A DNA stretch of 64,000 nt from Thermoplasmatota archaeon (GTDB lineage Archaea > Thermoplasmatota > JAKEGO01): the NCBI GenBank assembly GCA_028279595.1, contig JANQNK010000020.1:1-64000 (forward strand). Reading direction: 5' to 3'. A program made the position numbers and the translations under genes. The notes beneath the pieces were generated by a model that ran no database searches, was not told the origin of the DNA, and saw only the letters and a list, made by a program, of their open reading frames with translations. How positions within the stretch are numbered: the first letter of the stretch is position 1; the number at the start of each line of letters is the position of its first letter. Below, in pieces: positions 20,809-64,000 of this stretch.

Positions 20809-22236
20809 ATGTCAGGTAAGGTCGTGTCCTTTGTGGGTCTATGTCTGCTATCATTGATCATAGTAACGACTCTCACGGCGGTCGTCAACGGTGAAACGAT
20901 CGTCGTTGACGATGATGCCGGCTCATGGGCTCAGTATGATAACATTCAGGAAGCCGTTGACAACTCATCAGCGGACGATATTGTCCGGGTATATGCCGGG
21001 ACATACCATCCCGATTGGGTATACATCAACTGGACCCTGTCAATAGTGGGAAACGGCTCGACGCAGACGACATTCGATGGGGAGATGACCAATGATCGGG
21101 CCCTTCAGGTGAACGCCGATAATGCTTACGTATCTGACCTGATGATCTACAATTACAGTACAGACCGGACCGCCGTTAACATCAATTCCAACTGGACGAC
21201 CGTGGCGAGATGCAACTTCTCTTACAACGGCGATGACGGTCTCAGGATCGGATATCTCATAGAAGAGCAATCATGGCCACATAATGTCACAATAGAGGAA
21301 TGCGAATTCGTTCACAATACATATGGAATATTTGCTACCATGGGGAGGAACCACGTTTTTAAAGACTGTCTCTTCCAGCGCAACCTGCATGGACTCGCAA
21401 CCTCCACTGGATATTACGGGTATGGTTTCAATCATACAATCGTCAACTGCACTGCAAGACTGAACTTTGGTAGTGGCTTCCGCATCGGTGGAACGGGAAT
21501 CAACATCACCCAATGCTACGCCATCGACAACGACGATTACGGATTCTACTTCCATAATGGGTCCCTTACCATCAGTGAGTGCGACCTGACAGGAAATGAG
21601 GTCGGGATCGGTATCAGTAACGACTGGAAGCCATTTGCCGAGGACCTGAATATCGTCCAATGCGGATTTTTCAACAACACCAGAGGAATTCACGGTTCCC
21701 ACTCCAGGAGGATCCTCGTCGACCAATGTAATTTCTCAGGGAACTACAGAGGGATCTACCTCGCATCGAACACGGACGACTGGACGATCGAGAACTGCTC
21801 CTTCAATAACAGTGGTGATGTCCACATCCGTGGCGGTGACTGTGACGACGCAGAGATCATGTGGAACGAATTCATGGGTCACGACACGGCTATCTATCTT
21901 ACGTCCGGCTCGGATGGTTCAACGATCCATCACAACAATTTCATGTCCGACGCCAACGTTTCATCACAGGCGAAGGATGACGGCAACAGCAATCAGTGGG
22001 ACGACGGTGAGGAAGGGAACTGGTGGTCCGATTACAATGGGTCCGATGGAAATGGTGACGAGATCGGCGACACCGAATACGTGATCAACGGCAGTTCCGA
22101 TTCGACCGATCGGTATCCTTTGATGGACCCAGCCATGACCAGCGCACCGGAGAAGGTCAGCGGACTGAATTTCGTGATGATCACATTGTTCCTGGTCGTT
22201 GTTATTGGTATCTTGTTCAGAAGGCGACATCCATGA
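20809..22236 (+). CDS. NosD-type beta-helix surface protein with C-terminal TM + RRR anchor
   Basis: Signal peptide, VVDDDAGSW..IQEAVD, parallel beta-helix repeats, GNWWSDY...DRYPLM, APEKVSG-TM-RRRHP. Confidence 0.85.
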   Translation: MSGKVVSFVGLCLLSLIIVTTLTAVVNGETIVVDDDAGSWAQYDNIQEAVDNSSADDIVRVYAGTYHPDWVYINWTLSIVGNGSTQTTFDGEMTNDRALQVNADNAYVSDLMIYNYSTDRTAVNINSNWTTVARCNFSYNGDDGLRIGYLIEEQSWPHNVTIEECEFVHNTYGIFATMGRNHVFKDCLFQRNLHGLATSTGYYGYGFNHTIVNCTARLNFGSGFRIGGTGINITQCYAIDNDDYGFYFHNGSLTISECDLTGNEVGIGISNDWKPFAEDLNIVQCGFFNNTRGIHGSHSRRILVDQCNFSGNYRGIYLASNTDDWTIENCSFNNSGDVHIRGGDCDDAEIMWNEFMGHDTAIYLTSGSDGSTIHHNNFMSDANVSSQAKDDGNSNQWDDGEEGNWWSDYNGSDGNGDEIGDTEYVINGSSDSTDRYPLMDPAMTSAPEKVSGLNFVMITLFLVVVIGILFRRRHP

Positions 22237-24272
22237 GATCTATTCCCATCGTAGGCTTCATTATATTGGTGTCGATACTGACAACTATCGGAAACGGATC
22301 CACGGAGACCATAGTCGTCGATGACGATGGAGGGTCCTGGGCGGATTACTCCGATGTTCAGGACGCCATCAACAATTCGGGTGCTAATGATACGGTACTG
22401 ATCTACGAAGGAGAATATTTCGGTGGGATAACTCTGAATGAATCCGTATCATTGATCGGCAACGGTACTAACAAGACCACCATCAATGCCGACGGTGATC
22501 GGTATACAGTTAGGATCGAAACAAGCTGGTGCAACCTGAGCAAGGTGAAGATCACCGGTGCAGACTATAACATGGGTTCGTTCGGAGTTCTGATAGTCGA
22601 CGATCTGGATAACATCACTATCGACGAATGCATCATTATTGACAACGATAAGGACGGTTTATACATCAAGAATGGAGATAATTTCACCATTCGTGATTCA
22701 TCCATCATCGATCACATGTTCACTGCGATGGAGCTCCGTGTATGCAAGAACTCTCGGGTCATCAATTGTACGATCTCTGATCACCGAACAGCCATTGAAT
22801 TGCCTGGGGGTTCCAACCTACTAGTCAAGGATTGCTACCTCGAATCGATCGGTCGAGGTACCATTGTCAGCAATGTCTACAATGCTACCTTTGAGGACGT
22901 TACAACCTACCCCAACAGTTCTGTTAAAAGCTTGAACATCGGGATCACTCATTCCGAATTCATCAAATTGGTCAATTGCCGTGGGGACGGCAGCTACTCG
23001 ATCTGGGGTAATGAATTCGACCATTATTCCAATATTGAAGTCGAGAATTGTACAAGCCAGGGTAATCCATTCAACTTCATAGCTCATGATAGGGACGTGA
23101 TCCTAGAAGCGCCTAGAGGTCAGGTTGCCATATTCAATTCGACCAATGTGAGTGTGTTGAATGCTACCATCAATAACTACTCATATGCACTGAGGATCCA
23201 TTACTCGGACAATGTGACGATCGAAGCATCGAACCTGGATGATAATGACATTTACAGTCTCTATATTGATGAATCTCAACATATACGGTGTCTTAATATC
23301 TCAACCTCGAATAATCCGTCCTCAACGTCGAATGCATGTGGGATTAAAGCTGAAAATAGCGATTTCATTCGAATCGTTAATTGTTCAGTACGGGACAATG
23401 ACTTTTGTGGAATTCGATTAACTAACTGTGATCATACCGAGATCAATCGCTCGATCATCAAGGACAATGGAGATATTGGTGTGCAGATTCGAGGAAGTTA
23501 CTATCCATGGAGCTGCAGGGATAACAATGTCGTCAATTCGACGATCCAAGGTCACGACACCGGTGTCATTATTACTGCTTCCTATGGCTCCTTCATAATC
23601 TCAAATAATATTTCGTCATCCGACATCAATGGGATCGACCTGTCAAGTACTCGCTATCTAAGGTTCATTGATAATATGATCACGAATTGCAGCGGATATG
23701 GAATCGATATGTGGGAGTCCGAAAACGATGTAATTTCGCGAAATCACATCTACAATTGCGGCCTAGGTATCAACATAAGGGGTGGGAATTTTACATTGAT
23801 ATCGAACAACTCGATATTCGGAAGCGATTCGTATGGAATGGCTCTCTTCGGAGGGGTATACGACCGTCCCGCGAGAGAGTATCTGATCAAGTACAATGAA
23901 TTCATGGACAATCGCAATCATTCTATCTACATTAACAACGCAAGGGAATGCGTCATCCATCACAACAACTTCGGTAAAGCGCAGAGTGCAATGGACAACG
24001 GGAACACCTGGTCCCTTACTAACTCCACATGGGACGACGGAGAAGAAGGAAACTACTGGGCCGACTATAACGGCACCGATGGTAACGAGGATGGAATCGG
24101 GGATACTGCCCACCCTATCGAAGGGGATGCCAACTCCACCGACCGGTATCCGCTAATGGACCCGGCCACGACCAGCGCACCCGAGAAGGTGCCGGGGATC
24201 TCACCGATCGGCCCTATGATAGCCTTGGTCGCATTAACGATCCTCCTACGCCGTCGCTCAGGCAGAAAGTAA
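22233..24272 (+). CDS. NosD-type beta-helix surface protein with PGF-CTERM-like anchor
   Basis: Same cassette as the upstream paralog, ends APEKVPGI-TM-RRRSGRK; ATGA overlap. Confidence 0.85.
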   Translation: MRSIPIVGFIILVSILTTIGNGSTETIVVDDDGGSWADYSDVQDAINNSGANDTVLIYEGEYFGGITLNESVSLIGNGTNKTTINADGDRYTVRIETSWCNLSKVKITGADYNMGSFGVLIVDDLDNITIDECIIIDNDKDGLYIKNGDNFTIRDSSIIDHMFTAMELRVCKNSRVINCTISDHRTAIELPGGSNLLVKDCYLESIGRGTIVSNVYNATFEDVTTYPNSSVKSLNIGITHSEFIKLVNCRGDGSYSIWGNEFDHYSNIEVENCTSQGNPFNFIAHDRDVILEAPRGQVAIFNSTNVSVLNATINNYSYALRIHYSDNVTIEASNLDDNDIYSLYIDESQHIRCLNISTSNNPSSTSNACGIKAENSDFIRIVNCSVRDNDFCGIRLTNCDHTEINRSIIKDNGDIGVQIRGSYYPWSCRDNNVVNSTIQGHDTGVIITASYGSFIISNNISSSDINGIDLSSTRYLRFIDNMITNCSGYGIDMWESENDVISRNHIYNCGLGINIRGGNFTLISNNSIFGSDSYGMALFGGVYDRPAREYLIKYNEFMDNRNHSIYINNARECVIHHNNFGKAQSAMDNGNTWSLTNSTWDDGEEGNYWADYNGTDGNEDGIGDTAHPIEGDANSTDRYPLMDPATTSAPEKVPGISPIGPMIALVALTILLRRRSGRK

Positions 24273-24862: not shown

Positions 24863-27800
24863 TCAGCTTCTGTCAACCTCGGCTCCGAAGTGGAAGGAGT
24901 AGTCCTTCTCGGACTCGTCCTTGATGGTGTCGCCGTTCTCGTCGTTCCAGATTATCGCCTGGACCTTGAGGGCCTCCCACTCCTTCTCCTCGTCCGTGTC
25001 GTTGTTGTAGAACTCGTAGCCGCCGAGGAACAGTGTGGTGTTCGACTCGGAACCGTCGTCCTGCAGGTCGTGTCCCTCGCCGTAGACGAGGTAGAGGTAT
25101 CCGTGGCTCGGGTACGTCCCGTTGCCCTCGATGTACGCTCCGATGGCAGCGGAGGTGGAGTTCTCGACGTATCCGTTGGAGTTCTGGTCGTAGAGGGCGT
25201 AGCGTATTATGAGGAGCCTCTGGCGCTCGGGTGTGCCGTCGCCGTCGTCGTCCTCGGACTGGAACCCGATCAGAGTGGTGGTGTTCTCCTCGGGGTTCCC
25301 GTCGCTGTCCGCGTCCACCTTCAGGATGTGCCAGATGACGCCGCGCTCGACGCCGTCGTCGGTCTCCATGAGCCATGTCACGCCTTCCTCCCGCTCGTTG
25401 TTGCCGTCCTCGTCTGCGTCCACGGTGGTCGCTATGCCGAAGAACAGGACCTCGTGGTCCTCCTCCTGCATGTGCACCGCGGTTATGATGTTCTGCTCGT
25501 CGGTGTGGTTCTTGTGGTAGAGTGCGAAGGACATCTGCTCGTCGACCGTTCCATCGTCATCGTGGTCATGGGCCTCGTGGTACCAGACGAACCAGTCGGT
25601 GTCGTCTCCGACGACCTTTCCGCCCGCGACGTAGATCTTGAGGACCTCGTCGTTCCCGTCGTTGTCCTCGTCGACCTTGAGGGCGCCAGCCTGCATCGCG
25701 TTGTTCTCCTCGGCCACGCCGTCCGTGTCGTTGTCCCATGACTGTATCCCGGTGATGACCGCCCAGATCCTGTCGGCCTCGCCGTCCGAGTTGTAGTCGG
25801 ATATCTCGAGGATCCAGATCCATGTGTTGTTGGTCTCGGGGTTGCCGTCGTCGTCCTCGTCGATGATCTCGGTGCCGAAGAGCACGACTATGAGGTAGTC
25901 TGCGTTGCCGTCGGTATCATTGTCGTACATCTCCATTGCCGCAGCGGTCGCGGTGCCCTTGTTCGGGGTGCCGTCCATGTCATCGTCCTCGACGATGGCC
26001 GTGCCGATGACGGCCCTCATGTGCATGGGGTGTTCCTCGGAGGTCTCGGCGAACTCCTGCTCGACCCCCACTATGAAGGATTGGTTGTACTGGGGGTTGC
26101 CGTCCGTCGTGACGTTCTGTTGGTTTATCATTATCCAGATGGCCGCCTGGTACTCGTCGAAGCCGTCGGTGTCGTTGTCATAGGTCTCCAGGAATCCCAT
26201 TGCTCCCACGACGTCCTCGGTGTGGTTGTCCTCGTCGTTGTCCCACATCTGGTTGTGGGCGATGATGGCGCGGCGGTGCTCCGCGGAGCCGTCCTCCTGG
26301 ACGTTCTCCATCTGGACCTGGTAGTGGTAGCCAGTTCTATACTCGGCGTTCCCGTCGCTGTTGTTGTCGTAGAGCTGGTGTCCGTACGCGACCATGCCGA
26401 CGTCGATCCAGTCCTCGTCCGGGGTCGGGTCGTCGCCCTCCCACCAGAGGACATCGTTCTCGAGGTCGACCTCATCGATCAACACCGCCTGGCGGTAGTC
26501 GACATCCGGCTGCGAGGCGTTGTAGATCTCGTCGCCCAGGCCGTACGACTCCTTCGTGTCCTCCTCGTACAGCTCGCCGGTCGCCGGCTCGCCGGACGAC
26601 TCGTTGGTCAGGTCGTTGTTGACGGTCGTTAGGTTCAGACCCTCGAAGTCGGTCAGCGTGTCGCCGCCCTCGGACAGGTCCTTAATGGGCTCACCGCCGA
26701 TCTCGCTGAACTCGGGGGTATCGTCGCCGTTCTCATCGAAGATCTCCCCGATCTCGTCCTGGAGCTCCTCGTCGACGAACTCCGTTATGGTGCCCTCGTC
26801 CTGATCGGCCTCGCCGTCACCGTTGCTGTCCAGCAGGTCCTCGACCTGGTCGTTGGTCTCCTCGTTCTCGGAGGTCTCCTCGTACTCCTCGGTCTCTCGG
26901 ATCCGGAAGTCGTAGGCTCCGAAGAAGACGCCCAGATAGTCGAAGTTGCCGTCGGAGTTGTCATCTGTGATGCTCATCACGGCCCTGGTTCCCCAGGCAC
27001 GGTCAATGAAGCCGTCGTCGTTCTGGTCGACTCCCTGGTCCATCGCGGCCGCCGCGGCGCCCCTCTCGGGATTGCCGTCCTCGTCCGCGTCCATGAGGTA
27101 GATCGCGAACCTGGTGTTCTTGTAGCCGTCCCACACGCCGTCGGTGTGGTTCGCCCAGGTGCGGTTCTCGACCCTGAAGAGCGCCTCGTACTCGGGCACG
27201 CCGTTTGTGTCGTTGTCCCAGGACTCGTATCCACCGGCCTCGGTGTACATGTATTCCGGATCTCCGCTTGAGTCGTTGTCGTAGATGTATTCCCTGCCCT
27301 CGGCGGCGATCACGTGCTCGGCACTGCCGTCGTCGTTCGTGTCGCCGTTCTCGTAGGCCCAGACGTAACGCTCACTCATCTCGGGGATGCCGTCGTCGTC
27401 GCTGTCGGTCAGCGTCTCGCCGACCGCGCCCGTCCTGTTGCGCTCGGTGTTGCCGTCCTTGTCGGCGTCCCAGTACTCGATGGCGCCGGCGTTGTTGCTG
27501 ATGTATTCGGGATTGCCGTTGGTGTTGTTGTCGTAGTACTCCATCGCGAGGATCCCGATGCGTCCGTAGATCGCGTTGCCGTCCCGGTCGCCGTACTCCT
27601 CGTAATCGGTCTGGTGCCACCAGAGATAGGTGTTGTTCATCTCCTGGTTGCCGTCGCCGTTCGCGTCTATGCCGACGGAGGTCATGACGAGGACCCTGAT
27701 CGACAGGTTGTCGCCGAAGAGCTCCTCGACACCGCCCACGAACCCGCGGACGTACTCCGGGTTTCCGTCGGTGTTGTTGTCGTACCAGACGTGGCCTATG

Positions 27801-29074
27801 ATGACGGCCCTGTACTCGTCGAGCTGCCTGTCGTCGTCATCGTCGATCTCCTCCTGGGCCCAGACCTGGTGGTTTGCGAACTTCAGGTCCTCGCCCGAGA
27901 AGCGGAGGTTCTTCGCCACGAACAGAGCGGACTCCTTCTCGTTGATTCCGTCGTCGTCCGCGTCGAGGGTGTACTTGCCCCACTTCCGAACGCGTACGAC
28001 GGTGTCGACGATGGTGGTACTTGTCCTGTACGCCGCGAACACGAGGGTCTCCTCGTTGTTGAGGTCCTCGTCCTCGTTCACGGTCACTCGGCCCCAGTTC
28101 CACTCGACTATCCTGCCCGGGGTGCCGTCATCGTTGATGTCCCAGATCCGCATGCCGACCACCAGTATGGCCTCGTACTCGTGGACCCCGTTCGAGTTGT
28201 TGTCGTATCCCTCGTAGCCCGCGAGCCAAAGCCAGGTGAACTCGGCGTTCCCGTCGTCGTCGCCATCGTAGGACCAGACGATCAGGAGCAATGCGTTCTC
28301 CGACTCCGGGTTCCCGTCCTCGTCGGCGTCGGTGGCCTCGTAGGTCCAGTAGACCTCGCGGGACCAACCGGTGGACTCGTTGTAGTCCTCAGTGTCAGTA
28401 GTATTGTCGTCGTACTCTGCGAGCTCCTCGGTGAAGTCTGAGTATCCCTTGCTCGTGGCCGTTGCCTCGTAGTCGGGGTCCTCCCTGGCTTCATCGGTCT
28501 CGCCCTCGCCCCAGAGCACATGGAAATCCTCTATGTCATCGGTCTCGGTGACCTCTTCGTCGTAGACAGAGGCGTCCTCCTCGGGGTCGTACTCGACGAT
28601 CTCCTCGGCGTCCTCGTCCGTCGGGAGGTCTCCCTCGATCGATTCATCGTTCTCCTCGAGCATGTCCTCGACGTCCTCCATCTCGTAGTCGAGCATGTCC
28701 ATGCCCTCGGTCGAGTTCACCGCGTTGCCCAGGGGTGTTCCGGGTTCTGCGATGATGGCATAATCGGGTTCGCCGTCGCCGTCCTCGTCGAGGACCTCCT
28801 CGACGTCCACGGATCCGGCCTCTTCCAGGGTATCATTGTCGTGGTCGGGCTCGCCGTCCCCATCGGGATCGAGCTCCTCCTCGACGTTCTCGGGCTCGTA
28901 ATTGTTCGATATGATCCTGTCGAAGGCCGGTGTCTCGGTGTACTGCTGTACCTCCGATCCGCCCTCGTCAACATCATCGTCGGTCGGTATTACCTGCAAC
29001 AAGCTCATCGCGCTGAGGATGACGAGGAACGCCACCGCCACCGCGATCAATCCTTTCTCGCTTCTTCCATTCAT
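24863..29074 (-). CDS. Very acidic secreted/membrane-anchored protein with about 40 DxDxDG-like repeats
   Basis: N-terminal TM/signal; periodic D.D.DG.PE turns alternating with ~12-residue strands; strong codon bias; AGGTGAGG RBS before ATG 29074. Confidence 0.85.
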   Translation of the reverse strand: MNGRSEKGLIAVAVAFLVILSAMSLLQVIPTDDDVDEGGSEVQQYTETPAFDRIISNNYEPENVEEELDPDGDGEPDHDNDTLEEAGSVDVEEVLDEDGDGEPDYAIIAEPGTPLGNAVNSTEGMDMLDYEMEDVEDMLEENDESIEGDLPTDEDAEEIVEYDPEEDASVYDEEVTETDDIEDFHVLWGEGETDEAREDPDYEATATSKGYSDFTEELAEYDDNTTDTEDYNESTGWSREVYWTYEATDADEDGNPESENALLLIVWSYDGDDDGNAEFTWLWLAGYEGYDNNSNGVHEYEAILVVGMRIWDINDDGTPGRIVEWNWGRVTVNEDEDLNNEETLVFAAYRTSTTIVDTVVRVRKWGKYTLDADDDGINEKESALFVAKNLRFSGEDLKFANHQVWAQEEIDDDDDRQLDEYRAVIIGHVWYDNNTDGNPEYVRGFVGGVEELFGDNLSIRVLVMTSVGIDANGDGNQEMNNTYLWWHQTDYEEYGDRDGNAIYGRIGILAMEYYDNNTNGNPEYISNNAGAIEYWDADKDGNTERNRTGAVGETLTDSDDDGIPEMSERYVWAYENGDTNDDGSAEHVIAAEGREYIYDNDSSGDPEYMYTEAGGYESWDNDTNGVPEYEALFRVENRTWANHTDGVWDGYKNTRFAIYLMDADEDGNPERGAAAAAMDQGVDQNDDGFIDRAWGTRAVMSITDDNSDGNFDYLGVFFGAYDFRIRETEEYEETSENEETNDQVEDLLDSNGDGEADQDEGTITEFVDEELQDEIGEIFDENGDDTPEFSEIGGEPIKDLSEGGDTLTDFEGLNLTTVNNDLTNESSGEPATGELYEEDTKESYGLGDEIYNASQPDVDYRQAVLIDEVDLENDVLWWEGDDPTPDEDWIDVGMVAYGHQLYDNNSDGNAEYRTGYHYQVQMENVQEDGSAEHRRAIIAHNQMWDNDEDNHTEDVVGAMGFLETYDNDTDGFDEYQAAIWIMINQQNVTTDGNPQYNQSFIVGVEQEFAETSEEHPMHMRAVIGTAIVEDDDMDGTPNKGTATAAAMEMYDNDTDGNADYLIVVLFGTEIIDEDDDGNPETNNTWIWILEISDYNSDGEADRIWAVITGIQSWDNDTDGVAEENNAMQAGALKVDEDNDGNDEVLKIYVAGGKVVGDDTDWFVWYHEAHDHDDDGTVDEQMSFALYHKNHTDEQNIITAVHMQEEDHEVLFFGIATTVDADEDGNNEREEGVTWLMETDDGVERGVIWHILKVDADSDGNPEENTTTLIGFQSEDDDGDGTPERQRLLIIRYALYDQNSNGYVENSTSAAIGAYIEGNGTYPSHGYLYLVYGEGHDLQDDGSESNTTLFLGGYEFYNNDTDEEKEWEALKVQAIIWNDENGDTIKDESEKDYSFHFGAEVDRS

Positions 29075-29196
29075 AAGCCTCACCTATATCTTGCGTATCA
29101 TCTTCAAGTGCGGGGCCTCTTATATACAGAGACTTAAGGGTGTTCCGGACGAATGTTTCTATATGTTTTATATATGAGAAAGACGGCCTGAACGGT

Positions 29197-30055: not shown

Positions 30056-31369
30056 ATGGTCGTGTTCGCCGCGGAGGCCGGGAGCGCGGATGACGATCCA
30101 CCGGTCTGCGCTATCTGTAAGAAGCAAGGGCCGGACTATGTACACTCGTGCGGGGCGGAGTTCCACAAATCCTGCCTCGAGGAGTACAAGAAGTTCATCG
30201 GGTCATCCGACGTGATCTGTCCACACTGCCTCGAGAAGGTATCCTACGATGAGAAGAAGAAGGAGGCCGTCGACTTCATCGGCACTACCAAGGGGCCCGA
30301 GGACCTGCTGGCCCAGCAGTACCTCGACCTATCGACGGAATATTACCTCGAGCACATCAACAACGATATGTACTACGTCAGGGCCTTCGTCACGAACATG
30401 GACCCGGAGTCCGGGATATGGCACATGTATCCCATAACCATCAACTACTCCAACTATCCGGAGAGGCCCAGGATGACCATACCGGAGGACGTCCTCACGG
30501 ACGCCCTGGACCTCACCGAGACCATCGATATGTTGAGGGGTTGGAAGCCCGACTCCCCACCGCAGCTGGTCGAGCTCGTCAAGTCCATCGAGCACTCCAT
30601 AACGGACAAGAACAGGCTCTACGAGGAGATCGACCAACTCGTCAACGAGCTGGAGGGAGTGAGCGACAACGCCTCGAAGGTCGGATTCTCGTTCGATACG
30701 TACGGTGGAAGGAAGGTCGAGTTCTCACTCGGACTCGCCAACTACCCGCACGCACCGGACGTGATGGTCGAGGGCGTGCCCCTCGGCAAAGGTTTCGAGA
30801 CCCTGAAGGCCTGGACTGTCCGCGAATCGACCCTCAACGAGGTGGCCGTGGAGATCAAGGCACGTCTCATGCACCATTACAGGCGGGCCTTCGAGATCGA
30901 GCTCCTCGAACGCTACTTCGACGTCGACGACAACGAAAGACTGATCGTCGGCATGCGCGACCCTGGCTCGGGCGCGTTCCTGATATTCAAGGTCGACTTC
31001 CCGCCTGACCATCCCGCGAAGGCGCCAAGGATAGACGTCGACCAGTACGAGAACGTCTCCACCGAGGACCTCGAGAACATATTCGGGTCCTTGGAGAAGG
31101 CCCTGAAGGACTGGAAGAGCGACGTGTATGTCGTCGACGTACTGAGGGCCCTCCAGAACGAACTCTTCGAGCACGGCGGCGAGAAGTGTCCGACCTGCGG
31201 CGATCCTGACTGCCCCGACTGCGGAGCAGACCTCGAGGAGGGCTGCAGGGAGGTCTGCCCGAACTGCGGTCACGCCTTCCACGCCCACTGTCAGGAAGGG
31301 ATGGAGATCTGTCCCTACTGCCTGATCCCGTTCCCCGAGGAGGTCTACGAGGTCGAGGTTACCGACTAG
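30056..31369 (+). CDS. RING - three tandem UBC/RWD-like domains - RING protein (FANCL-like architecture)
   Basis: N-terminal CAIC..HSCGAEFHKSC..CPHC; three (Y/H)PxxxP-type motifs each followed by L..W...L..(L/V)...(I/L); C-terminal CPDC..CPNCGHAFHAHC..CPYC. Confidence 0.8.
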   Translation: MVVFAAEAGSADDDPPVCAICKKQGPDYVHSCGAEFHKSCLEEYKKFIGSSDVICPHCLEKVSYDEKKKEAVDFIGTTKGPEDLLAQQYLDLSTEYYLEHINNDMYYVRAFVTNMDPESGIWHMYPITINYSNYPERPRMTIPEDVLTDALDLTETIDMLRGWKPDSPPQLVELVKSIEHSITDKNRLYEEIDQLVNELEGVSDNASKVGFSFDTYGGRKVEFSLGLANYPHAPDVMVEGVPLGKGFETLKAWTVRESTLNEVAVEIKARLMHHYRRAFEIELLERYFDVDDNERLIVGMRDPGSGAFLIFKVDFPPDHPAKAPRIDVDQYENVSTEDLENIFGSLEKALKDWKSDVYVVDVLRALQNELFEHGGEKCPTCGDPDCPDCGADLEEGCREVCPNCGHAFHAHCQEGMEICPYCLIPFPEEVYEVEVTD

Positions 31370-32813: not shown

Positions 32814-33533
32814 TTGTACGACGCAAGGTACAAGGTGCGGCGGATATCCCTCATCACCCTTTTCATAACGTTGATCGTAAATGCGATTTTCTTCCTCGCT
32901 CCGCTCAGCGAGCCGGCGGACTCGGTCCACCTCGGCGAGGAGGGCGGTGCGAACATCGTCGACCAGAGCGAAAAGTTCGACGACATGAACCCGTTCGCCC
33001 GGTCCGTCTACCTGTTCGGCGACGCCACCTGTCATCAGAAGGCGAGCAGGTCGTTCTTCATCAACGGGAACCAGATGCCCGTCTGCGCCCGGGACGTCGG
33101 GATATACCTCGGACTCACGCTCGGTGTACTGGTATTCATGGTCTTCCCCCGCAGGTTCTCGATGTGGTGGCTTGCGATCGTGATAGCCCCCTTTGCCATA
33201 GACGGGATGGTCCAGCTCGTGACGGCATACGAGAGCAACAACGCCCTCCGGCTGATGACTGGCAGCATGTACGGCGGTATAATCGGAGTCTTCATCCTCA
33301 TGTCCATCAACGAGATCTACGACGTCAGGCTGAAACTGTTCGGACCGGAGAGATGGCTTCGGAGGAAATTGAGGATGCCCGAAAAGCCACCTGTGCTGTA
33401 CCAGTACAGGCCTCGGGAGCCGGAACGTCGCGAGAGGCCGTCCTCCGATGAGAAGCGGCCGCAGGCCGGACGAAGGAGGCGTGACCCTCCCCGCAGGAAG
33501 GGACCGGCCGGTCCCCGGACCGGGAAGGAATGA
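32814..33533 (+). CDS. DUF2085-family membrane protein
   Basis: CHQKASRSF..NGNQMPVCARDVGIYLG, DG..Q....YESNNALR..TG; TTG start after GAGGTGA RBS. Confidence 0.85.
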   Translation: MYDARYKVRRISLITLFITLIVNAIFFLAPLSEPADSVHLGEEGGANIVDQSEKFDDMNPFARSVYLFGDATCHQKASRSFFINGNQMPVCARDVGIYLGLTLGVLVFMVFPRRFSMWWLAIVIAPFAIDGMVQLVTAYESNNALRLMTGSMYGGIIGVFILMSINEIYDVRLKLFGPERWLRRKLRMPEKPPVLYQYRPREPERRERPSSDEKRPQAGRRRRDPPRRKGPAGPRTGKE

Positions 33534-33830: not shown

Positions 33831-36422
33831 TTGCCAAACATGTTGGGACCCCAGCACGTGTTCGTCATGCTCCTGACCGTTATGATGATATCCATCGGAA
33901 CCGCGAGTGTGGAAGCCGATGAGGTGTATGATGAATACGATGTCTCGTTCGATAGTCCCACCTCCGTCACGGTGGAGTGGGAATGCTCCATCCAGCTCCT
34001 TACGGTCGATTCCTCGTTGCGTGACTGGGAGAACATCAAGTCAGAGAACCTCCAGGAGAATGCCTCCAGGATAGTGTTCGACAGCGCCAACCTCACCGCG
34101 TCCCGTTTCTACCTCTTCAGCCAGATATCCAACGGGACCGTGACCTGGGACGAGGATGTCATATCCTGCACCTTCACGATCACCCTTGGCAAGCGGACCT
34201 GGGCACTTGACGAGTACGACGTAGTCTCGATGGACGATGTCGTCGACGCCGCCCTCGAGATGGGCGGGAACGTCAGCATCTGGACCACGATCTGGGTCGA
34301 GGGAGAACACCACGCGAACGTCACCTTCGGCGTTGATTCCCTGGGAGACGATACCGGTGGGTCAGGTGCGTACATCATACCCACAAGGTACGTGAACAGG
34401 ACGGTGAACGCCCTCTCCGGTCCCAGGCAGTGGAACCGGTACTACGGGATCATGGGAAGGGGAGGAGTACAGATCGAGGACCCCTTCATCGACGCGGACA
34501 TCTACATGCCATCGATGAAGCTATACGAGCTCAACGGGACGGTCTCCTACGGCACCATCGACCTGTGGGACTACGGGATCGAACTGCCCGACACCATCAA
34601 CCTGACATCGATGAACGCCGGCGGTGTGCGGATCCTGGTGAACAACGGACTTGCCAATTGGACGGACATAATCGACGACGTCGCGGACGAGCTCGTCTAC
34701 GGCGGCATCGACATCGAGCGGGCCATCCGGGAAACCTTCAATAGCGATGGGTCGATAGCGGTCGATTTCGACCCGGATTCGATAGCGACCGTTCCGTACA
34801 CCAGGGGTCAGCTCGCGGCACAGGGGCCGATAGAACTGGACCTGCACAGTGCCGATGACGCACAGCTCTTCAACGAGGATGATGAGACATTGATGGGATT
34901 CCTCAACTCCGGGGCCAGGACCCGAATGGGGACCAATGCAGACCTCTCCGGATACGACTACAGGTTCATGTTCCGGGCTCCTTACGGGATCATTGCCGAA
35001 CCCGAGCTCGGCGAACAGGTCGGGAACTTCGCCAGGTGGAACGGCTCCGGATTCCTGAACACGTCCATGTGGTTGAGTTCGACCGATGCCCCTGGCGTCA
35101 TCCAGAACGACACGAACGTCATGATCGACATCGACATGAGCGACATATCCCTCCTCGGGATGAAGATGAACTACGAGTTGAACGCCGAGGGCCGCGTCAG
35201 GTGGATGCTCCTCGGACACGACCTCCGGAAGGGCGTCCCGCGGGACATGGAGATCGAGTACGTGAGCGCCGACCTCATCCGGATGATGTACGGGAAGGGC
35301 CTCATCAACGAGGAGGACATCGACAACATAACCCGCGAGATCCGCGAGGGCCTCGAGGAGGATAGCCCGTTCTCAGCGGGCATGGAGATCGAGGTCACGG
35401 GCTATGACGGCGAGTGGGACATCAACGACATGGACGGCCGTCCGGCCGTCGTTTTCACGATATACTCGAAGGGGGAGATGGGTCTCAGGGGCGGCGAGAA
35501 CGTCCTCCTGAACATGATATCGGTGCCCATCGAGTTCGAGCTCGCCTCTGTCGAGGGCTGGAACACGACATACAGTATATTGCTTCCCGAAGGCCTATCC
35601 GTGGCGAGCGTTGAGGTCTCCGACGGGGAGGTCACCAAGTCCACCGAGGGATTCAAGCACAGGGTAACCATCCGGATCCCCAGGGACGTCGAGAGCGTCA
35701 CCGTCAAGCTCAAGCTCAACGTGGGAATGATGTTCCTGATCAGCCAGTTCTGCATGTGCTTCCAGGGACTGCTCCTGATCGTCGTTCTCCTCGTCCTGGT
35801 CAAGGTCTGGAAGTACGTAAAGGAGAGAAGGGCCGAGAAGAAGGACGACGAGCTCATCGCCAAGGGACTGAAGGCGAAGGCAGCCATCGCCACCCTCAAG
35901 GCCGCCAAGGCCGCCGAGGAGCGGGGAGAGGAGCCTCCCGAGAAGGGTCCGCCTTCCGAGGATGATGAGGAGGTCGAGTTCAAGGAGGACGTTCCGGAGG
36001 AGGAACCCGAGGAGGAGGTCCCGCCGGAACCGGTCGAGCGGCGTCGGAGGCGGAGACCTGAGCCACCGGTCGAGGAACCCGAACCTGAGCCTGAGCCCGA
36101 GCCAGAGCCGGAACCCGAACCATCCGATGAACCCGATGAACCGCTTTATGAAGATGAGGAGCCAGAACCTCCCGCGGAGCCGGAACCTACCGCTGAAGCC
36201 GGAGGGCCAGCGGTGATGGGGAGGCCGGGACCTCAGACACCGGACCCCGAGGCGGTCAAGGCTGCCAAGGGAACCCCTCCGCCGGTGGCACCCGCCAAGT
36301 CCGATGTGGAGGAGGATGTCGAGGACGGACCGGAGGAAGAGGAGGCTCCCGAAGACGGATCCGACGACGAGGAACCGGCGGACGAGCCAGATTCCATCGA
36401 GGACACCTCGGAATGGTCCTGA
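33831..36422 (+). CDS. Single-pass membrane protein with large ectodomain and acidic Pro/Glu-rich tail
   Basis: Signal peptide, internally repeated ectodomain, TM near aa 635-660, EPEPEP low-complexity tail; the start may be ATG 33840. Confidence 0.75.
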   Translation: MPNMLGPQHVFVMLLTVMMISIGTASVEADEVYDEYDVSFDSPTSVTVEWECSIQLLTVDSSLRDWENIKSENLQENASRIVFDSANLTASRFYLFSQISNGTVTWDEDVISCTFTITLGKRTWALDEYDVVSMDDVVDAALEMGGNVSIWTTIWVEGEHHANVTFGVDSLGDDTGGSGAYIIPTRYVNRTVNALSGPRQWNRYYGIMGRGGVQIEDPFIDADIYMPSMKLYELNGTVSYGTIDLWDYGIELPDTINLTSMNAGGVRILVNNGLANWTDIIDDVADELVYGGIDIERAIRETFNSDGSIAVDFDPDSIATVPYTRGQLAAQGPIELDLHSADDAQLFNEDDETLMGFLNSGARTRMGTNADLSGYDYRFMFRAPYGIIAEPELGEQVGNFARWNGSGFLNTSMWLSSTDAPGVIQNDTNVMIDIDMSDISLLGMKMNYELNAEGRVRWMLLGHDLRKGVPRDMEIEYVSADLIRMMYGKGLINEEDIDNITREIREGLEEDSPFSAGMEIEVTGYDGEWDINDMDGRPAVVFTIYSKGEMGLRGGENVLLNMISVPIEFELASVEGWNTTYSILLPEGLSVASVEVSDGEVTKSTEGFKHRVTIRIPRDVESVTVKLKLNVGMMFLISQFCMCFQGLLLIVVLLVLVKVWKYVKERRAEKKDDELIAKGLKAKAAIATLKAAKAAEERGEEPPEKGPPSEDDEEVEFKEDVPEEEPEEEVPPEPVERRRRRRPEPPVEEPEPEPEPEPEPEPEPSDEPDEPLYEDEEPEPPAEPEPTAEAGGPAVMGRPGPQTPDPEAVKAAKGTPPPVAPAKSDVEEDVEDGPEEEEAPEDGSDDEEPADEPDSIEDTSEWS
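36076..36140 (+). repeat. Degenerate 6-nt coding tandem repeat (Glu-Pro)
   Basis: gaaccc/gaacct/gagcct/gagccc/gagcca/gagccg units encoding EPEPEPEP. Confidence 0.7.
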
Positions 36423-55258: not shown

Positions 55259-58200
55259 TTATGCCGGTCCCTTCCTACGTGGTTTCCTTGCCTTTTTACC
55301 TGTACGAAGGACATCCTTGTATTCGTCAGTTATATGGCAGCCCCATTTCCGCTCTGAAGATACAACACCCTTCGCCTTCAGGTCCTTGACGTGATAGGCG
55401 ACCGTCGACTGCGTGATATCAAGACGTGAAGCCAGCTCTCTCTGCTTGATACCGGGCTGTTTAATGATCTGCATCACAACCCTCTTCTCTACGTCGCTCA
55501 GAACGACGTCTGGGACCCTGTAGCCGTAAGGATAGAACCTCCGATACATTCCATCCGGACGTGATTTGATGAAACCACCGGATTCGAGCACCCGCAGGTG
55601 GTATCCGGTGGTCCCGTTCTTCAGGTCGAGTTCCTTCTTGATCCTGTTGAAGTGGGAACCCGGATTCTCGTTGAGGTAGAGTACGATGCGACCCCTGGTC
55701 TCATGGTCGGTGATGGCTTCCTTCTTCAGTTTGGAATATAGTGGGAACAGGAGAGGGATAGCGAAGTAGCGTCCTCTGTCGATGGCCCACAGGCCTGCGA
55801 ATCCTGCTCCGAGGAGGCCGATGGAGGCTCCGACGAAGATCCATGTAACGAAGACCGGATCTGTGGAATCTCCAATATCATCGAGAGATATCGTCCCTCG
55901 CGCTGTTCCGGAGTTCAGTTTTTCGTTATCATCGGAATAGCTTGTCGCCGTGATGTTGAAGCTTACCGAACCGCTAGCATTCAATGGTACCAGCGCCGAG
56001 ATCCTAGCCTCTTTCTCGGAACCCGGTAGGATGTAAAGACTTTGATTGGTGATCGTGACCCATTCGCTATCGACCGTCAAACGGATCATCTGGGGAACGT
56101 TACCCTGATTTTCCACCGTAAGGTCATACTTGACCTTATCACCGGGATCGGCGCCGGACGTCAATCGGTTCAATCCCAGTGAGAAAGAATAATCGGCCCC
56201 ACTAGCTGTGACAGTTGTCTGTTCTGAACCGACCATCTGATCTTCGTGTAGAACGACGACCTCGAATGTATAATCTCCAGATTCGTTCAGTGAGACGCTG
56301 AATGTGAGATTCGTATAGCTCGTACCTGGGGAAAGGATCAAAACCTGAGACGAATTCTTAACTACGGCGTCTTCCCGCTTTGTATTCAATCTTACTGTAA
56401 GATTGGATTCATGAGGGATCCCCGAATGGTAACCAAGGGTGATCGTCACATTAAGGGATTCACCTGTGACCACGTACCCATCATAGGAGATGTCTGCTGT
56501 AACCTCGAGTGACCGATTGAGCCATTTCTCTGGTGGGCTGTACGGATCCATAAGGGGATAGGAGTCGATCGTGCCAGTACCGTTATGGATGTAGTACGGA
56601 ACATCACCGATTCCATCTTTATCATTGTCCTTTCCAGTATAGTCGCTCCAGTAGTTACCCTCAGATCCATCGTCCCACGTGGTGGCAATACCTACATTCG
56701 TAACCTGGTGACGATCCTCATTGTGAATATAGAAGTTATTATGATGAATTGTCGAGTTTATACAGGTCTTTGTAATGTAGAGCGCAAGTTCATCACCAAG
56801 TGTGAACTCATTGGCCCACACCATGGTATCGAGAGACGAATAATCGATGACGATACTGCTGTAGGTATCGGAGTTCCCACGGAACCTGTTGCTTGAGATG
56901 TTCGTGTCCTCCGAGTACAACAGGCGGACCCCCGTTTCGGAAGAACGAATCTCATTATCGACTATTCGGTTACCCTTGGATCTGTGAAGATATATCCCCC
57001 ACTCACAGGTCTCGATGGAATTGTTCATCAACAGGTTGTCGTCTGAATATATCAGTGAAATGCCAGAATAGGATTGGTTTGAGACCGTGTTCTCACGGAC
57101 GATGTTGTTCCGGCAGAATCCCATCTGTATGCCAATTCCCGAATGATTGACAAGATTCCCTTCGACGATCACATACTCACAGGCTGCCATTATTATATGG
57201 CGGGAGGTTCCGTTCACAACTCCTCCACTAGCATTCTTTACGTAGATTATCGGGCTGCCATCGATCTGGTTTGACTGATCGATACTGTGTGTGTTCCAGT
57301 TCGCTTTGTAATGTCCGTAGATGTTGATCCCACAGTTCGAAAAGGTATTATTCGATACTACGGTCCGATTCGAATGCCAGATGCCCAAACCATATTCTGC
57401 ATCGACGACACGATTGTGGATGATGCGATTATCATCGGACCACGCGATGTGGATTGACCGTCTTGAATCACTGAAACTACACGACTCGATCAGGTTCCCT
57501 TTCGCCCCGTCCTCAAGGGCGATCCCTCTCTCGATGTCGGATAAGTGGATATTCAGGAGCGAGCACTGATCAGAGTCCACCAATATTCCGTTCCGGGGTC
57601 TATACTTGGTGCCTTCCTCGATGCCAAGACCTTCGATCATTACGTTATTACTCTTTACCCAGACCACTGACATCTCCTCGTCCGAGCCCGCTTCCAGCGT
57701 GGTGTTGGATGAACCATTTCCTATGATATCCAACCTCTTTTCGATGATGATTGATTCCTCGTATTCACCAGCGTAGATGTTAATGATGTCAAAGTCTGTC
57801 GCATGTTCGAGTGCATCCTGGATCAACGAGAAATCAGCCCACGAACCATTGTCATCATCCACGATCCAGGTCTGTGGAATCATATCATTTGAGCCGGACC
57901 CATTCGGATTCATAAGAGGAAAAAGGTCCGCGATGAGCAAACTGCCGTTGATCACATAGGGTATATCGCCGATCCCATCGTTGTTCACGTCGGTCCCATT
58001 GTAATCCGACCAGTAATTGCCACGTTTTCCATGATGCCATGTAACGTTGTTACCGTCATCCTGAGCGTTCTCCGTGTTATCTATCAGAGCATTTTGATAG
58101 ATAATGCCATAGGTGTTGGACTCGTTCTGGTCTTTTACTCTTCCCCAGAGCTCGATACCTATCTTCGAATTGTTCTGGATCGTGTTGTTATTTATAATGA

Positions 58201-60718: not shown

Positions 60719-60832
60719 ACTCTCCCCTCGACACCGTTCTTACGATGCCGTCATTATATGAGGAGATTGGGTTACTTCTCGATAATTCTTGCGATAAGCC
60801 CGGTTCCTGCGTTTTTAAACGGGCTAATACCT

Positions 60833-63800: not shown

Positions 63801-64000
63801 TTATCGATGAAATTGTTGTGGTGGATCAAATTGTATGCGGATCCACCCTCTGACTGGATTCCGTACCCCTCATTGTACATGATGTCATTATAAATGATCT
63901 CGTTCACTGTAGCACCCTCATCAATGACAATACCGAGGGCATCCCCCATTCCATCGATTTGGTTGTTCGATATTTCATTGTAATGTATCTGGTTCCGGAT
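60833..64000 (-). CDS. Paralogous beta-helix + Ig/CARDB-like + TM + double winged-helix protein (5' partial)
   Basis: Frame stays open to the window end (IRNQIHYNEISNNQIDGM...); same C-terminal module as 55259-60718. Confidence 0.88.
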   Translation of the reverse strand: MRNQIHYNEISNNQIDGMGDALGIVIDEGATVNEIIYNDIMYNEGYGIQSEGGSAYNLIHHNNFIDNNGNSSQAFDDGYFNIWDNGDAGNFWSDHESEEPYILLGKTGATDDHPIDEEWDGVEAEGIKVWVVDDDDGWWNDYKAIRAAIDNANNGDYVVAFDGDHVDFDARKSVTIIGNESHRSRIICGHNYVSILEDDTRLIGLRIVENSNRDGIHVHADDCLIENIVFDNGTRGIDLSGNNNLVRNCIFMDSRGIWGSRDGSRIVNSVFEDISGWSIYLPRCDDWIISNCTFSSGDDDGIYIQESSGVKVISCRFTDLKEGLTIYRSREISIERNQFDNASIIMTGEVLEDWTTHTFDSNTMDGREVSYIRNRTGGMGSGLQSCFILANVTDFTIFNENEIMNLSSVQIGFSNNITVSNVDVKGTGLTGIKLYKSSNFSLARSSVTGFVRGVSQFGGEYTAIERCSFNDNHQYAIYISMGNESRILGCEVQGTGPYYDERYFPNQTLGTGIYLEDSDDNVIGSNHIFNNTIAGIEVYRSDGNLILNNSIDGNGEHGIVVRSYLNIFHDPVYSRNNTLSLNSFNSNNGPYSQGFDDTTYNYWYMAKRGNYWSDYTGSDDDGDGIGDTPYFLDGNDSAKDPYPLMEPGTSVDVSSEIWTIGETIKGETITVVIVLESASADPEETYATVEIEIQLDGEHYSTIQGNITIPVGQWNQTLEQSLYLNESGNYTFKGKVIHDDVEVETAEAAILSEVRDHSFKVTMDRSSSKAKPEDEVEYTLTIENQGNVPQRFRLSCEEDWIVIDNITIYILPHSEGTTTVTATIPSGAEGVVNFTILTESISLDDEVYNSGSASVEITVSDPTADPIGLLWIFLGVTALGAIGLVGVWSTDRGRYLAIPFLSPLYSKLKRDNIQDHDIRGRIVVYLDNDPGAHFNKIKKQLDLKNGTAGYHLRVLEKGGFIKSVSDGMYRRFYPHGYSIPNVHLGNMEKKIVMEIIKNPGISQKRLSTKLKISASTITYHVKDLKEKGIVTYSRKTGCQLTDEYRTILKDQKDKL

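Follow-up and report, generated by a model that had tools for sequence, protein, structure and literature searches.

A predicted RING-type E3 ligase built on three pseudo-E2 domains in a Thermoplasmatota archaeon

Introduction

The gene described here, P0001, lies at positions 30056..31369 on the forward strand of a 64,000-nucleotide (nt) stretch of the genome of a Thermoplasmatota archaeon (assembly GCA_028279595.1, contig JANQNK010000020.1, positions 1 to 64,000; hereafter the window), exactly where a first-pass annotation of the bare sequence had drawn its open reading frame (ORF). It encodes a protein of 437 amino acids (aa) in which three pseudo-E2 domains of the UBC/RWD fold stand between two RING fingers. 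We consider P0001 to be, with good probability, a RING-type E3 ligase for a ubiquitin-like protein (Ubl) that serves the eukaryote-type conjugation system encoded by the same genome. Archaeal Ubl cascades described so far use minimal RING E3s; the P0001 family shows an elaborate prokaryotic E3 architecture.

Tandem pseudo-E2/RWD domains joined to an Rbx1-like RING were previously seen only in eukaryotic ligases (FANCL, Ltn1, RNF25). Prokaryotic RING fingers were reportedly treated by Burroughs, Iyer and Aravind in 2011. A search of the full-text literature, in which FANCL or RWD was combined with archaea or Asgard and from whose scope subscription-only work was excluded, retrieved a single relevant paper (PMC6601020) and no tandem pseudo-E2-RING protein in any prokaryote. 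That paper describes a single Asgard “RWD-like domain” and proposes that the eukaryotic RWD domains (kinetochore, FANCL, Mediator) radiated from an archaeal non-catalytic E2. The new elements are the E3 architecture and its distribution across Asgard and Thermoplasmatota, the surrounding conjugation system being known in kind.

Three Non-Catalytic E2-Like Domains Between Two RING Fingers

All the features of P0001 lie on the forward strand. An N-terminal RING finger (30101..30241, aa 16-62) is followed by a flexible linker of acidic and basic residues (30242..30292, aa 63-79), in which the predicted local distance difference test score (pLDDT) falls below 50 at residues 66-78, and then by pseudo-E2 domain 1 (30293..30649, aa 80-198), pseudo-E2 domain 2 (30650..30916, aa 199-287) and pseudo-E2 domain 3 (30917..31174, aa 288-373, with its N-terminal helix starting from about aa 260), the last of which is a canonical RWD domain; an Rbx1/APC11-like, three-zinc RING-H2 finger (31181..31330, aa 376-425) closes the protein. 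Domain 1, made of a helix, four strands and further helices, carries a YPxxP loop at residues 134-138 and W163, domain 2 a YPHAP loop at residues 230-234 and W253, and domain 3 an FPPDHPAKAP loop and W353. The first-pass annotation had located these hallmark loops correctly, the first as NYSNYPERPRM at aa 130-140 (nt ~30443-30475), the second as NYPHAPDV at aa 229-236 (nt ~30740-30763) and the third as FPPDHPAKAPRI at aa 315-326 (nt ~30998-31033).

The repeats that had been claimed on this basis are real and stand above chance in profile-profile comparison. The profiles of domains 1 and 2 match with 99.4% probability (E 3.8e-21, 106 columns, in a register shifted by one repeat) and those of domains 1 and 3, taken from non-overlapping alignments, with 89.5% probability (E 1.9e-6, 92 columns); for domains 2 and 3, hhalign recovered nothing beyond the trivial overlap between the input alignments. 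In Pfam, the RWD model (PF05773) matches domain 3 at aa 307-370 with 27.6 bits, above its gathering threshold of 22.8. Among the 29 members of the family alignment, RWD is matched in 23 (E <= 0.01) and UQ_con in 19, and a few members match UBC_like, BRE, FANCL_d1 or UEV; in NCBIfam, no model matches P0001. When searched against the sequences of the PDB, the domain-3 profile retrieves several hundred catalytic UBC E2s (best E 1.8e-7). The profiles of domains 1 and 2 alone gave no significant match there (BRE E 0.15, E2 E 0.23), and the UBC identity of these two domains is drawn from the structural model, from the homology of the internal repeats and from the family-wide Pfam matches. P231 and R276, both in domain 2, are near-invariant in the 29-member alignment.

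All 16 cysteines of P0001 fall in two clusters at the ends of the protein (residues 18-58 and 378-422). As had been noticed when the repeats were assigned to the UEV/RWD type, there is no cysteine at residues 59-377, and no alignment column of the repeat region contains cysteine in three or more of the 29 members; the three repeats are therefore non-catalytic. The HPN motif and the active-site cysteine that characterize a catalytic E2 (UQ_con) are likewise missing from all of them. The three units are homologous, non-catalytic E2-like domains of the RWD/UEV type.

An AlphaFold2 model of P0001, built on the 29-member family alignment, has a mean pLDDT of 88.8 and a predicted template modelling score (pTM) of 0.72, and is disordered only at residues 1-12 and 66-78. 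Its secondary structure, as assigned by DSSP, consists of a finger with a helix at residues 38-48, three helix/beta-meander/helix units (80-198, 199-287 and 288-373) and a second finger. The units follow the alpha-beta(4)-alpha topology of UBC domains, with the YPERP, YPHAP and HPAKAP loops, and two long helices (171-198 and 260-287) are shared between neighbouring units.

In a Foldseek search of the PDB, the top match to the whole model is human FANCL (9a0j_L and 7kzp_L, E 1e-9, ~380-405 alignment columns), followed by the central domain of FANCL (3zqs, 7e-6), BRE/BABAM2 (6gvw_C, 2.7e-5; also 6h3c_C) and Drosophila FANCL (3k1l, 6e-5) and, lower down, by listerin (9gy4_F, 3.4e-4) and then Knl1 and CENP-O. 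Global template modelling scores (TM-scores) against FANCL are low (0.22-0.25, with a sequence identity of 13-17%), so that the geometry between the domains of P0001 differs from that of its matches. At the level of single domains, alignments made with VIA-align are closer. Residues 219/258-373 match the RWD domains of GCN2 and RWDD1 with Z 11.3-11.8 (root-mean-square deviation, rmsd, 3.2-4.0; ~110 residues aligned), the best being domain 3 against GCN2 (Z 11.8, rmsd 3.2, 110 aligned), and E2 enzymes with Z 9-10; residues 197-373, which comprise domains 2 and 3, match the tandem RWD of Knl1 (Z 9.3, 166 aligned), and residues 118/184-274 the UEV domain of Tsg101 (Z 8.8-9.0). The ESM Atlas cluster closest to the model is purely archaeal, a “RWD domain-containing protein” family drawn mostly from Promethearchaeota, with UQ_con in 76% and RWD in 75% of its members; the clusters next in line are eukaryotic LTN1, RNF25 and FANCL, and residues 80-206 align to UBC_like clusters of listerin with a TM-score of 0.44 (normalised by the match). 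The expectation that the repeats would model as UBC/RWD folds has thus been borne out, both by the domain-level Z of about 9-12 to RWD, UEV and E2 structures and by FANCL as the top match of the whole model.

The Two RING Fingers

The N-terminal finger had been proposed to be RING-like, and its ligand set, C18-x2-C21-x8-H30-x-C32-x4-H37-x2-C40-x14-C55-x2-C58, invariant in four close homologues, agrees with this, as do its relatives: outside the P0001 family, phmmer finds proteins with strong RING domains (P0029, P0043, P0047). The Pfam matches are weak and below the cut-off (zf-RING_2, E 3.5e-4; zf-C3HC4, E 0.0076), and those to PHD models are weaker still. In the model, the helix at residues 38-48 follows the third pair of ligands with pLDDT above 90. 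The residues through which RING fingers usually contact an E2 are all in place, namely I20 within C-A-I-C, Y44 on the helix, four positions past C40, and P56 within C-P-H-C.

Conservation within the family is highest in the C-terminal finger, which has twelve candidate ligands (C378, C381, C386, C389, C397, C401, C404, H409, H411, C412, C419 and C422); nine of them (C378, C381, C386, C389, C404, H409, C412, C419 and C422) never vary across 26 sequences, two more (C397 and C401) reach at least 90% conservation there, and H411 is invariant among the close relatives, which brings the ligands to twelve, enough for three zinc sites. In profile searches against the PDB, this finger matches RNF4 (3.2e-6), RBX1 (~9e-6), Arkadia (3.9e-5), RBX2 (8.6e-5) and APC11 (1.1e-3), as well as HRD1, and positions 6-60 of the profile align with residues 41-96 of RBX1 over all three zinc segments, with the core CGHAFHAHC facing CNHAFHFHC. 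When modelled in isolation (pLDDT 85.8), it retrieves through Foldseek nearly exclusively RINGs (BIRC7, RNF165, APC11, RBX1, Ltn1), with TM-scores of 0.5-0.65 and all with E > 0.02; for Ltn1, the TM-score is 0.59 and the rmsd 2.7. The prediction that the fingers would prove RING-like is in agreement with these profile matches and with the isolated model. As to the class of the C-terminal finger, which had been given as C4HC3, the RING type stands and the class does not, the finger having 11-12 ligands and aligning with the three-zinc RBX1. On the strength of the twelve ligands and of this alignment, we take the C-finger to be an Rbx1/APC11-like three-zinc RING-H2; the alignment to RBX1 also suggests which ligand would belong to which site.

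The two fingers differ in their distribution. The C-finger is common to the whole family, and the N-finger occurs in P0001, in its close homologues and in the operon-embedded subfamily B described below, but in none of the Asgard members. This second RING was added in the Thermoplasmatota lineage.

A Ubl-E1-E2-JAMM Operon in the Same Genome

The genome (2.29 Mb in 21 contigs, 86% complete, 0.2% contamination) contains the studied window on its contig C18. The first-pass annotation had seen no ubiquitin, E1 or catalytic E2 in the window and supposed that the partners of P0001 might be encoded elsewhere. Both points hold: these genes sit on contig C13, where four adjacent genes on the minus strand (C13:32160-35162), flanked by genes for an amidohydrolase and an AlaX-like protein, form a pro-Ubl-E1-E2-JAMM operon. 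The Ubl is of beta-grasp size (81-88 aa) and ends in QQAGG-R, the E1 is of the ThiF type (189 bits), the E2 matches UQ_con with 74 bits and possesses both HPN79 and Cys99, and the JAB/MPN protease (53 bits), whose JAMM motif HTHPGHDLFLSTID (HxHx7Sx2D) is intact, carries a tail rich in Lys and Pro at its N-terminus and a coiled coil at its C-terminus. The genes that define a Caldiarchaeum-type system, a GG-ending Ubl, an E1, a UBC E2 and a JAMM protein, are therefore encoded together in this operon. As a separate observation, 19 residues separate the His of the HPN motif from the catalytic Cys in the C13 E2, against about 10 in canonical UBCs.

The operon includes no RING gene. A scan of the genome (86% complete) with zf-RING_2 matched only the N-finger of P0001, and one with Prok-RING_1 gave, as the sole near-full-length match, the C-terminus of P0002, the gene downstream of P0001; the profile of the Rbx1-like C-finger found nothing else convincing in the genome.

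The prediction of a complex between P0001 and the C13 E2 offers weak support for their association, with a score of 0.38 against 0.01 for the best of three controls. Of 80 solved complexes, 58 attain the passing mark of this procedure, as do 2 of 110 mismatched pairs; scores of 0.60 or under, such as this one, account for only 7 of the 80 solved complexes and for both of the passing mismatches. A pass of this class is more often wrong than right where a strong prior is lacking. Between runs, at least 50% of the contacts are the same, and the pLDDT of the partners is at least 84. Because RING-E2 complexes have been abundantly solved, the prediction may reflect likeness only.

Homologues, Gene Linkage and Distribution

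The P0001 family is rare: a search of 1.84 billion proteins gave 44 representatives at E <= 1e-3, and a word search gave three clusters. Its nearest members (83%, 60% and 40-42% identity) show the same order of RING, three RWD domains and RING. A search for loci with a four-sequence alignment led to one named genome only, that of Thermoplasmata archaeon PMV_4.75, which encodes the relative at 60% identity; at this locus (L008), the homologue of P0003, the upstream neighbour of P0001, is again found directly upstream (53% identity) and that of P0002 downstream (33% identity over the full length).

More distant relatives connect the family to Ubl operons. The members of subfamily B (P0008, P0009 and P0052; ~690 aa, 30-32% identity) share the N-terminal RING and possess a fourth pseudo-E2 domain, so that four of these domains are placed between two RINGs (L010:10001-12076 and L014:8459-10537). 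In three loci (L010, L011 and L014) coming from two independent assemblies (JGI 3300009034 and GCA_964347255.1), the subfamily-B homologue is the fifth co-directional gene after those for Ubl, E1, E2 and JAB. This operon-embedded homologue is 32% identical to P0001 over residues 85-426, the E2 of its operon is 62% identical to the C13 E2, and the Ubl ends in QQAGG-WIKK. In addition, a Helarchaeota contig (L013) carries a homologue directly upstream of a ThiF E1.

With the family profile, the full-length gene was found in 3 of 401 evenly sampled Thermoplasmatota genomes, and no RWD-array RING protein was found in the other 398. The three carriers are all of the reference genomes of one small class (one order, two families), the class to which the present genome belongs, and all three possess both the P0001 gene and the E2, the latter at 72-76% identity.

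Conjugation enzymes are distributed much more broadly. UQ_con E2s were detected in 94 of the 401 genomes, in 53 of 162 genera, in agreement with a deep “Ca. Thermoplasmatota E2” clade already remarked on (bioRxiv 10.1101/2023.07.25.550441). In all five Thermoplasmatota genomes checked (G018, G008, G001, G004 and G351), the E2 gene neighbours a JAB gene, joined in three cases (G018, G008 and G004) by an adjacent ThiF E1; the RWD-array RING family was found in none of the five. One of these genomes, G018, has two E2-JAB clusters (examples of such clusters are G018:C20:307522-309123 and G008:C24:25657-27706). The view that archaeal E1-E2-RING systems are known mainly from Caldiarchaeum and Asgard archaea thus needs to be qualified, in that eukaryote-type E2s are widespread in Thermoplasmatota. 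Since the conjugation core is common in this phylum, it is not the surprising element; the restricted one is the RING protein with the pseudo-E2 array.

Proposed Function and Alternative Readings

The supposition that P0001 would be an E3-like ligase or scaffold gains support from the Ubl-E1-E2-JAMM operon of its own genome and from the homologues found in such operons. Several lines of evidence argue for a ligase. By elimination, RING-like fingers were detected in this genome only in P0001 and P0002; by linkage, three lineages encode homologues of P0001 within or next to the operon; by co-occurrence, all three genomes of the class have both the gene and the E2. Recruitment of an E2 is favoured over purely structural fingers because no other part of the family is as conserved as the C-finger, whose profile is RBX1/RNF4-like.

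In the mechanism that we propose, the JAMM protease would trim the pro-Ubl (…QQAGG-R), exposing the Gly-Gly end; the ThiF-type E1 would adenylate the Ubl and hand it over to Cys99 of the UBC E2; one of the two RING fingers of P0001 would dock the E2~Ubl thioester; and the rigid array of three pseudo-E2 domains would act as a platform holding the substrate, the Ubl or both. FANCL divides these tasks between its ELF domain, which binds ubiquitin, and its double RWD, which binds the substrate. From the sequences and the models we infer that P0001 would bind the C13 E2 and stimulate the transfer of the Ubl. A precedent exists in Caldiarchaeum, whose Ub-E1-E2-RING-Rpn11 cascade has been reconstituted in vitro, with Rpn11 maturing pro-ubiquitin (PMC5654768). 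The archaeal system is compact, comprising five or six soluble proteins of small size, all encoded in one genome, and would be suited to in vitro studies of how pseudo-E2 domains position the substrate and the E2~Ubl.

Several observations weigh against a ligase role. In this genome, the P0001 gene (on C18) is not linked to the Ubl operon (on C13), and no ubiquitin-system gene lies near five of the eight homologues inspected (P0007, P0009, P0015, P0017 and P0020). The co-occurrence of gene and E2 comes from three related, hence non-independent, genomes, and the predicted complex with the E2, besides being weak, has no reported interface. Taken alone, P0001 scores below the Pfam gathering thresholds for RING at both its N- and its C-finger. 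Finally, the C-finger of the P0001 subfamily has lost the usual hydrophobic E2-contact residues, with CPTC and HCQ where the Asgard members keep the canonical CVIC and HCW. Since two contact positions have been lost there and the set of the N-finger is fully canonical, the N-finger may have taken over the recruitment of the E2 in P0001.

Three other functions were weighed against that of a ligase. According to the first, which we regard as unlikely, P0001 would not be a ligase but a scaffold or regulator of a JAMM deubiquitinase (DUB), and its fingers would be structural or protein-binding zinc modules. The model is BRE/BABAM2, in which UEV/RWD-like domains in tandem serve to organise BRISC and BRCA1-A, the complexes of the JAMM protein BRCC36. 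BRE (6gvw_C, 6h3c_C) is indeed among the top structural matches of P0001 and the Pfam BRE model is found in 3 of the 29 family members; in the operon-embedded homologues the gene directly follows that of JAB, and the extensions of the JAB protein, with a Lys-rich N-terminus and a coiled-coil C-terminus, could dock a partner. However, the BRE matches are weaker than those to FANCL, and BRE has no RING, whereas the RING-type C-finger is what the P0001 family conserves most. P0001 may also combine an E3 activity with the docking of a DUB.

A second reading, to which we assign little probability, sees in P0001 a reader of the Ubl or a cofactor of the E2, similar to the UEV proteins Mms2/Uev1 and Tsg101, which would direct chain building or sorting, with the RINGs serving only as tethers. 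It finds some encouragement in the likeness of domain 2 to the Tsg101 UEV (Z ~9), in the domain-3 profile, which is closest to catalytic E2s, Ubc13 included, and in the Asgard UEV-Vps23 proteins, which bind ubiquitin (bioRxiv 10.1101/2023.07.25.550441). Yet there are no ESCRT genes near P0001 in the window, and a UEV-type role is compatible with that of an E3, as the ubiquitin-binding ELF domain of FANCL illustrates, so that this is a refinement of the E3 function more than a rival to it.

Very unlikely, in our opinion, is a function independent of ubiquitin, in which the RWD array would be a generic platform like those of kinetochore RWDs, GCN2 and RWDD1, and the fingers would bind nucleic acids or proteins, perhaps together with the membrane proteins encoded nearby (P0003, P0002 and the DUF2085 protein). 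The RWD domains of Knl1, CENP-O and GCN2 are good structural matches, the N-finger is weakly PHD-like, and the conserved neighbours of P0001 are membrane proteins and not ubiquitin enzymes; on the other side stand the linkage of the homologues to the operon in three lineages, the strict co-occurrence of the gene and the E2 in the class, and the RBX1-like profile of the C-finger.

Asgard Relatives and Origin of the Family

Every named distant member of the family is from Asgard archaea, that is from Lokiarchaeota/Lokiarchaeia, Promethearchaeota, Helarchaeota or Sigynarchaeota, and one of them was automatically annotated as “E3 ubiquitin-protein ligase”. These proteins, of ~600 aa and ~20-28% identical to P0001, have no N-terminal RING and usually an extra N-terminal UBC-like domain, which stands isolated and is followed by a long low-complexity linker, three more domains and the RING. 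A maximum-likelihood tree of the shared core unites the two Thermoplasmata subfamilies in a single clade (support 100/99) whose sister is a Lokiarchaeota sequence (94/98). The tree is unrooted, and Asgard sequences fall on either side of the midpoint root, which was used for drawing only.

The idea that the contig could be an Asgard mis-bin or a chimeric assembly, prompted by the exclusively Asgard distant relatives and by the nesting of the Thermoplasmata clade among Asgard sequences in the tree, is effectively refuted: the gene lies ~30 kb inside a contig of 405,710 bp with an even G+C content (0.59-0.62 across the ORF and its flanks), the contamination of the genome is 0.2%, an orthologue with both flanking genes occurs in the Thermoplasmata metagenome-assembled genome PMV_4.75, the gene is present in 3 of 3 genomes of the class, and ~20-28% identity to the Asgard members is far too low for recent contamination. 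The first-pass annotation had named chimerism with Asgard DNA as a danger to be excluded, and it is excluded by the synteny, the class-wide presence and the low identity.

Given the diversity of the family in Asgard archaea and its narrow distribution in Thermoplasmatota, a transfer from the former to the latter is the parsimonious reading of the unrooted tree. A wider scenario, possible but more doubtful than not, is that this family is the prokaryotic stock of the eukaryotic RING ligases with multiple RWD/pseudo-E2 domains (FANCL, and perhaps the RWD-RING ends of Ltn1 and RNF25). Tandem non-catalytic arrays with an Rbx1-like RING would have arisen by duplication of an E2 in Asgard archaea before eukaryogenesis, and a small Thermoplasmatota class would later have gained the gene by transfer, added the second RING and wired the protein to its own Ubl-E1-E2-JAMM operon. 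With the P0001 family, the “non-catalytic archaeal E2” that was proposed, on the basis of one Asgard RWD-like sequence, to lie behind the eukaryotic RWD radiation (PMC6601020) gains a concrete candidate from archaea, and the apparent sharing of a eukaryote-signature protein between Asgard and Thermoplasmatota is relevant wherever such proteins are taken as markers of eukaryotic ancestry.

Neighbouring Genes and the Rest of the Window

P0001 is the second of four co-directional genes on the forward strand (P0003, P0001, P0002 and the gene of a DUF2085 protein), three of which encode membrane proteins. Upstream, P0003 (29140..29994) is a protein with two transmembrane segments and an uncharacterised C-terminal domain; it matches no Pfam family, and in the ESM Atlas the C-terminal domain scored 0.83 or lower, which is uninformative. 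Downstream, P0002 (31421..32809) comprises a zinc ribbon, a Pro/Lys-rich linker, a transmembrane segment, a CarboxypepD_reg beta-sandwich (34.4 bits), further transmembrane segments and a C-terminal RING-like finger, which matches Prok-RING_1 with E 1.3e-4, below the cut-off. When compared by hhalign with the C-finger family of P0001, this finger gives 68% probability (E 4.8e-5), and its spacing mirrors the second half of the C-finger. The beta-sandwich of P0002 would be extracellular and its finger cytoplasmic, and the protein is possibly a second, membrane-bound E3. The DUF2085 membrane protein (32814..33533; PF09858, 98.8 bits) starts 4 nt after P0002.

On either side of this cluster are two long proteins with no Pfam family. 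The first (24863-29083, minus strand) is an extremely acidic, secreted or anchored protein of 1406 aa with dozens of DxDxDG-like repeats (DADEDGNPE, DNNSDGNAEY, DNDTDGVPEY), which are reminiscent of calcium-binding loops; the second (33831-36422, plus strand), of 863 aa, has an N-terminal signal or transmembrane segment, a late transmembrane segment and a long Glu/Pro-rich acidic C-terminal tail. The G+C content of the window falls from ~0.60 to 0.45-0.49 at 22001-24000 and 56001-64000, which may mark foreign or differently constrained DNA. The sole public sequencing run containing P0001 DNA is a coral metagenome (2022), maybe the source of the assembly itself, and gives a hint of the habitat only; no RNA run is listed as containing it.

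Comparison with Known Systems

The systems of Caldiarchaeum and of Asgard archaea share with that of the present genome a pro-Ubl extended past the GG, an E1 made of a single chain, a UBC E2 that has HPN and Cys, a JAMM protease and a RING protein as the E3, predicted in the case of P0001 (PMC5654768; bioRxiv 10.1101/2023.07.25.550441). They differ in that their E3s are small RINGs (srfp) devoid of pseudo-E2 domains, whereas P0001 has an array of three such domains (four in some relatives) and a second RING, and in that the host of P0001 is of the Thermoplasmatota lineage.

The C-finger of P0001 aligns with RBX1 and APC11 over three zinc segments, including the CxHAFHxHC core. Unlike RBX1 and APC11, which are small subunits inserting a beta-strand into a cullin or APC2, it is fused to a scaffold of its own; no cullin homologue was seen here, and none was searched for. 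Ltn1 and RNF25 resemble P0001 in carrying an RWD-type domain directly before a C-terminal RING; however, in Ltn1, which acts on 60S ribosomes, a single RWD follows a long solenoid of HEAT repeats, a region that P0001 does not have, RNF25 has one RWD N-terminal to its RING, and neither of them possesses a triple array or two RINGs. In BRE/BABAM2, Knl1 and CENP-O/P, too, non-catalytic UBC-fold domains occur in tandem and pack through a long helix that they share, but these proteins have no RING and are scaffolds, of a JAMM DUB complex or of the kinetochore, and not ligases.

FANCL remains the closest comparison, its ELF domain, double RWD and C-terminal RING following the same order as the three non-catalytic UBC-fold domains and the RING of P0001. 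The FANCL-like layout claimed by the first-pass annotation therefore stands as regards architecture and fold, with three UBC-fold domains and then a RING, and FANCL as the top full-length match, and falls as regards family membership. The RING of FANCL is a two-zinc C4HC3 finger, PHD-like, whereas the C-finger of P0001 is predicted to be three-zinc and Rbx1-like, and FANCL lacks the additional N-terminal RING. None of the FANCL-specific Pfam models (FANCL_d1/d2/d3, FANCL_C) matches P0001 above the cut-off, the match to FANCL_C (E 0.038) being confined to the N-finger, and FANCL_d1 is seen in 2 of the 29 relatives at E 2e-4 or weaker (in P0015, with 17.1 bits against a cut-off of 23.8). To our knowledge, neither UBE2T nor the partners of the Fanconi core complex, with which FANCL acts on FANCD2/FANCI, are to be expected in archaea. 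The missing FANCL domains, the different type of RING and the second RING rule out that P0001 is an orthologue of FANCL; it is a member of the RWD/UBC superfamily and of the RING-H2 class.

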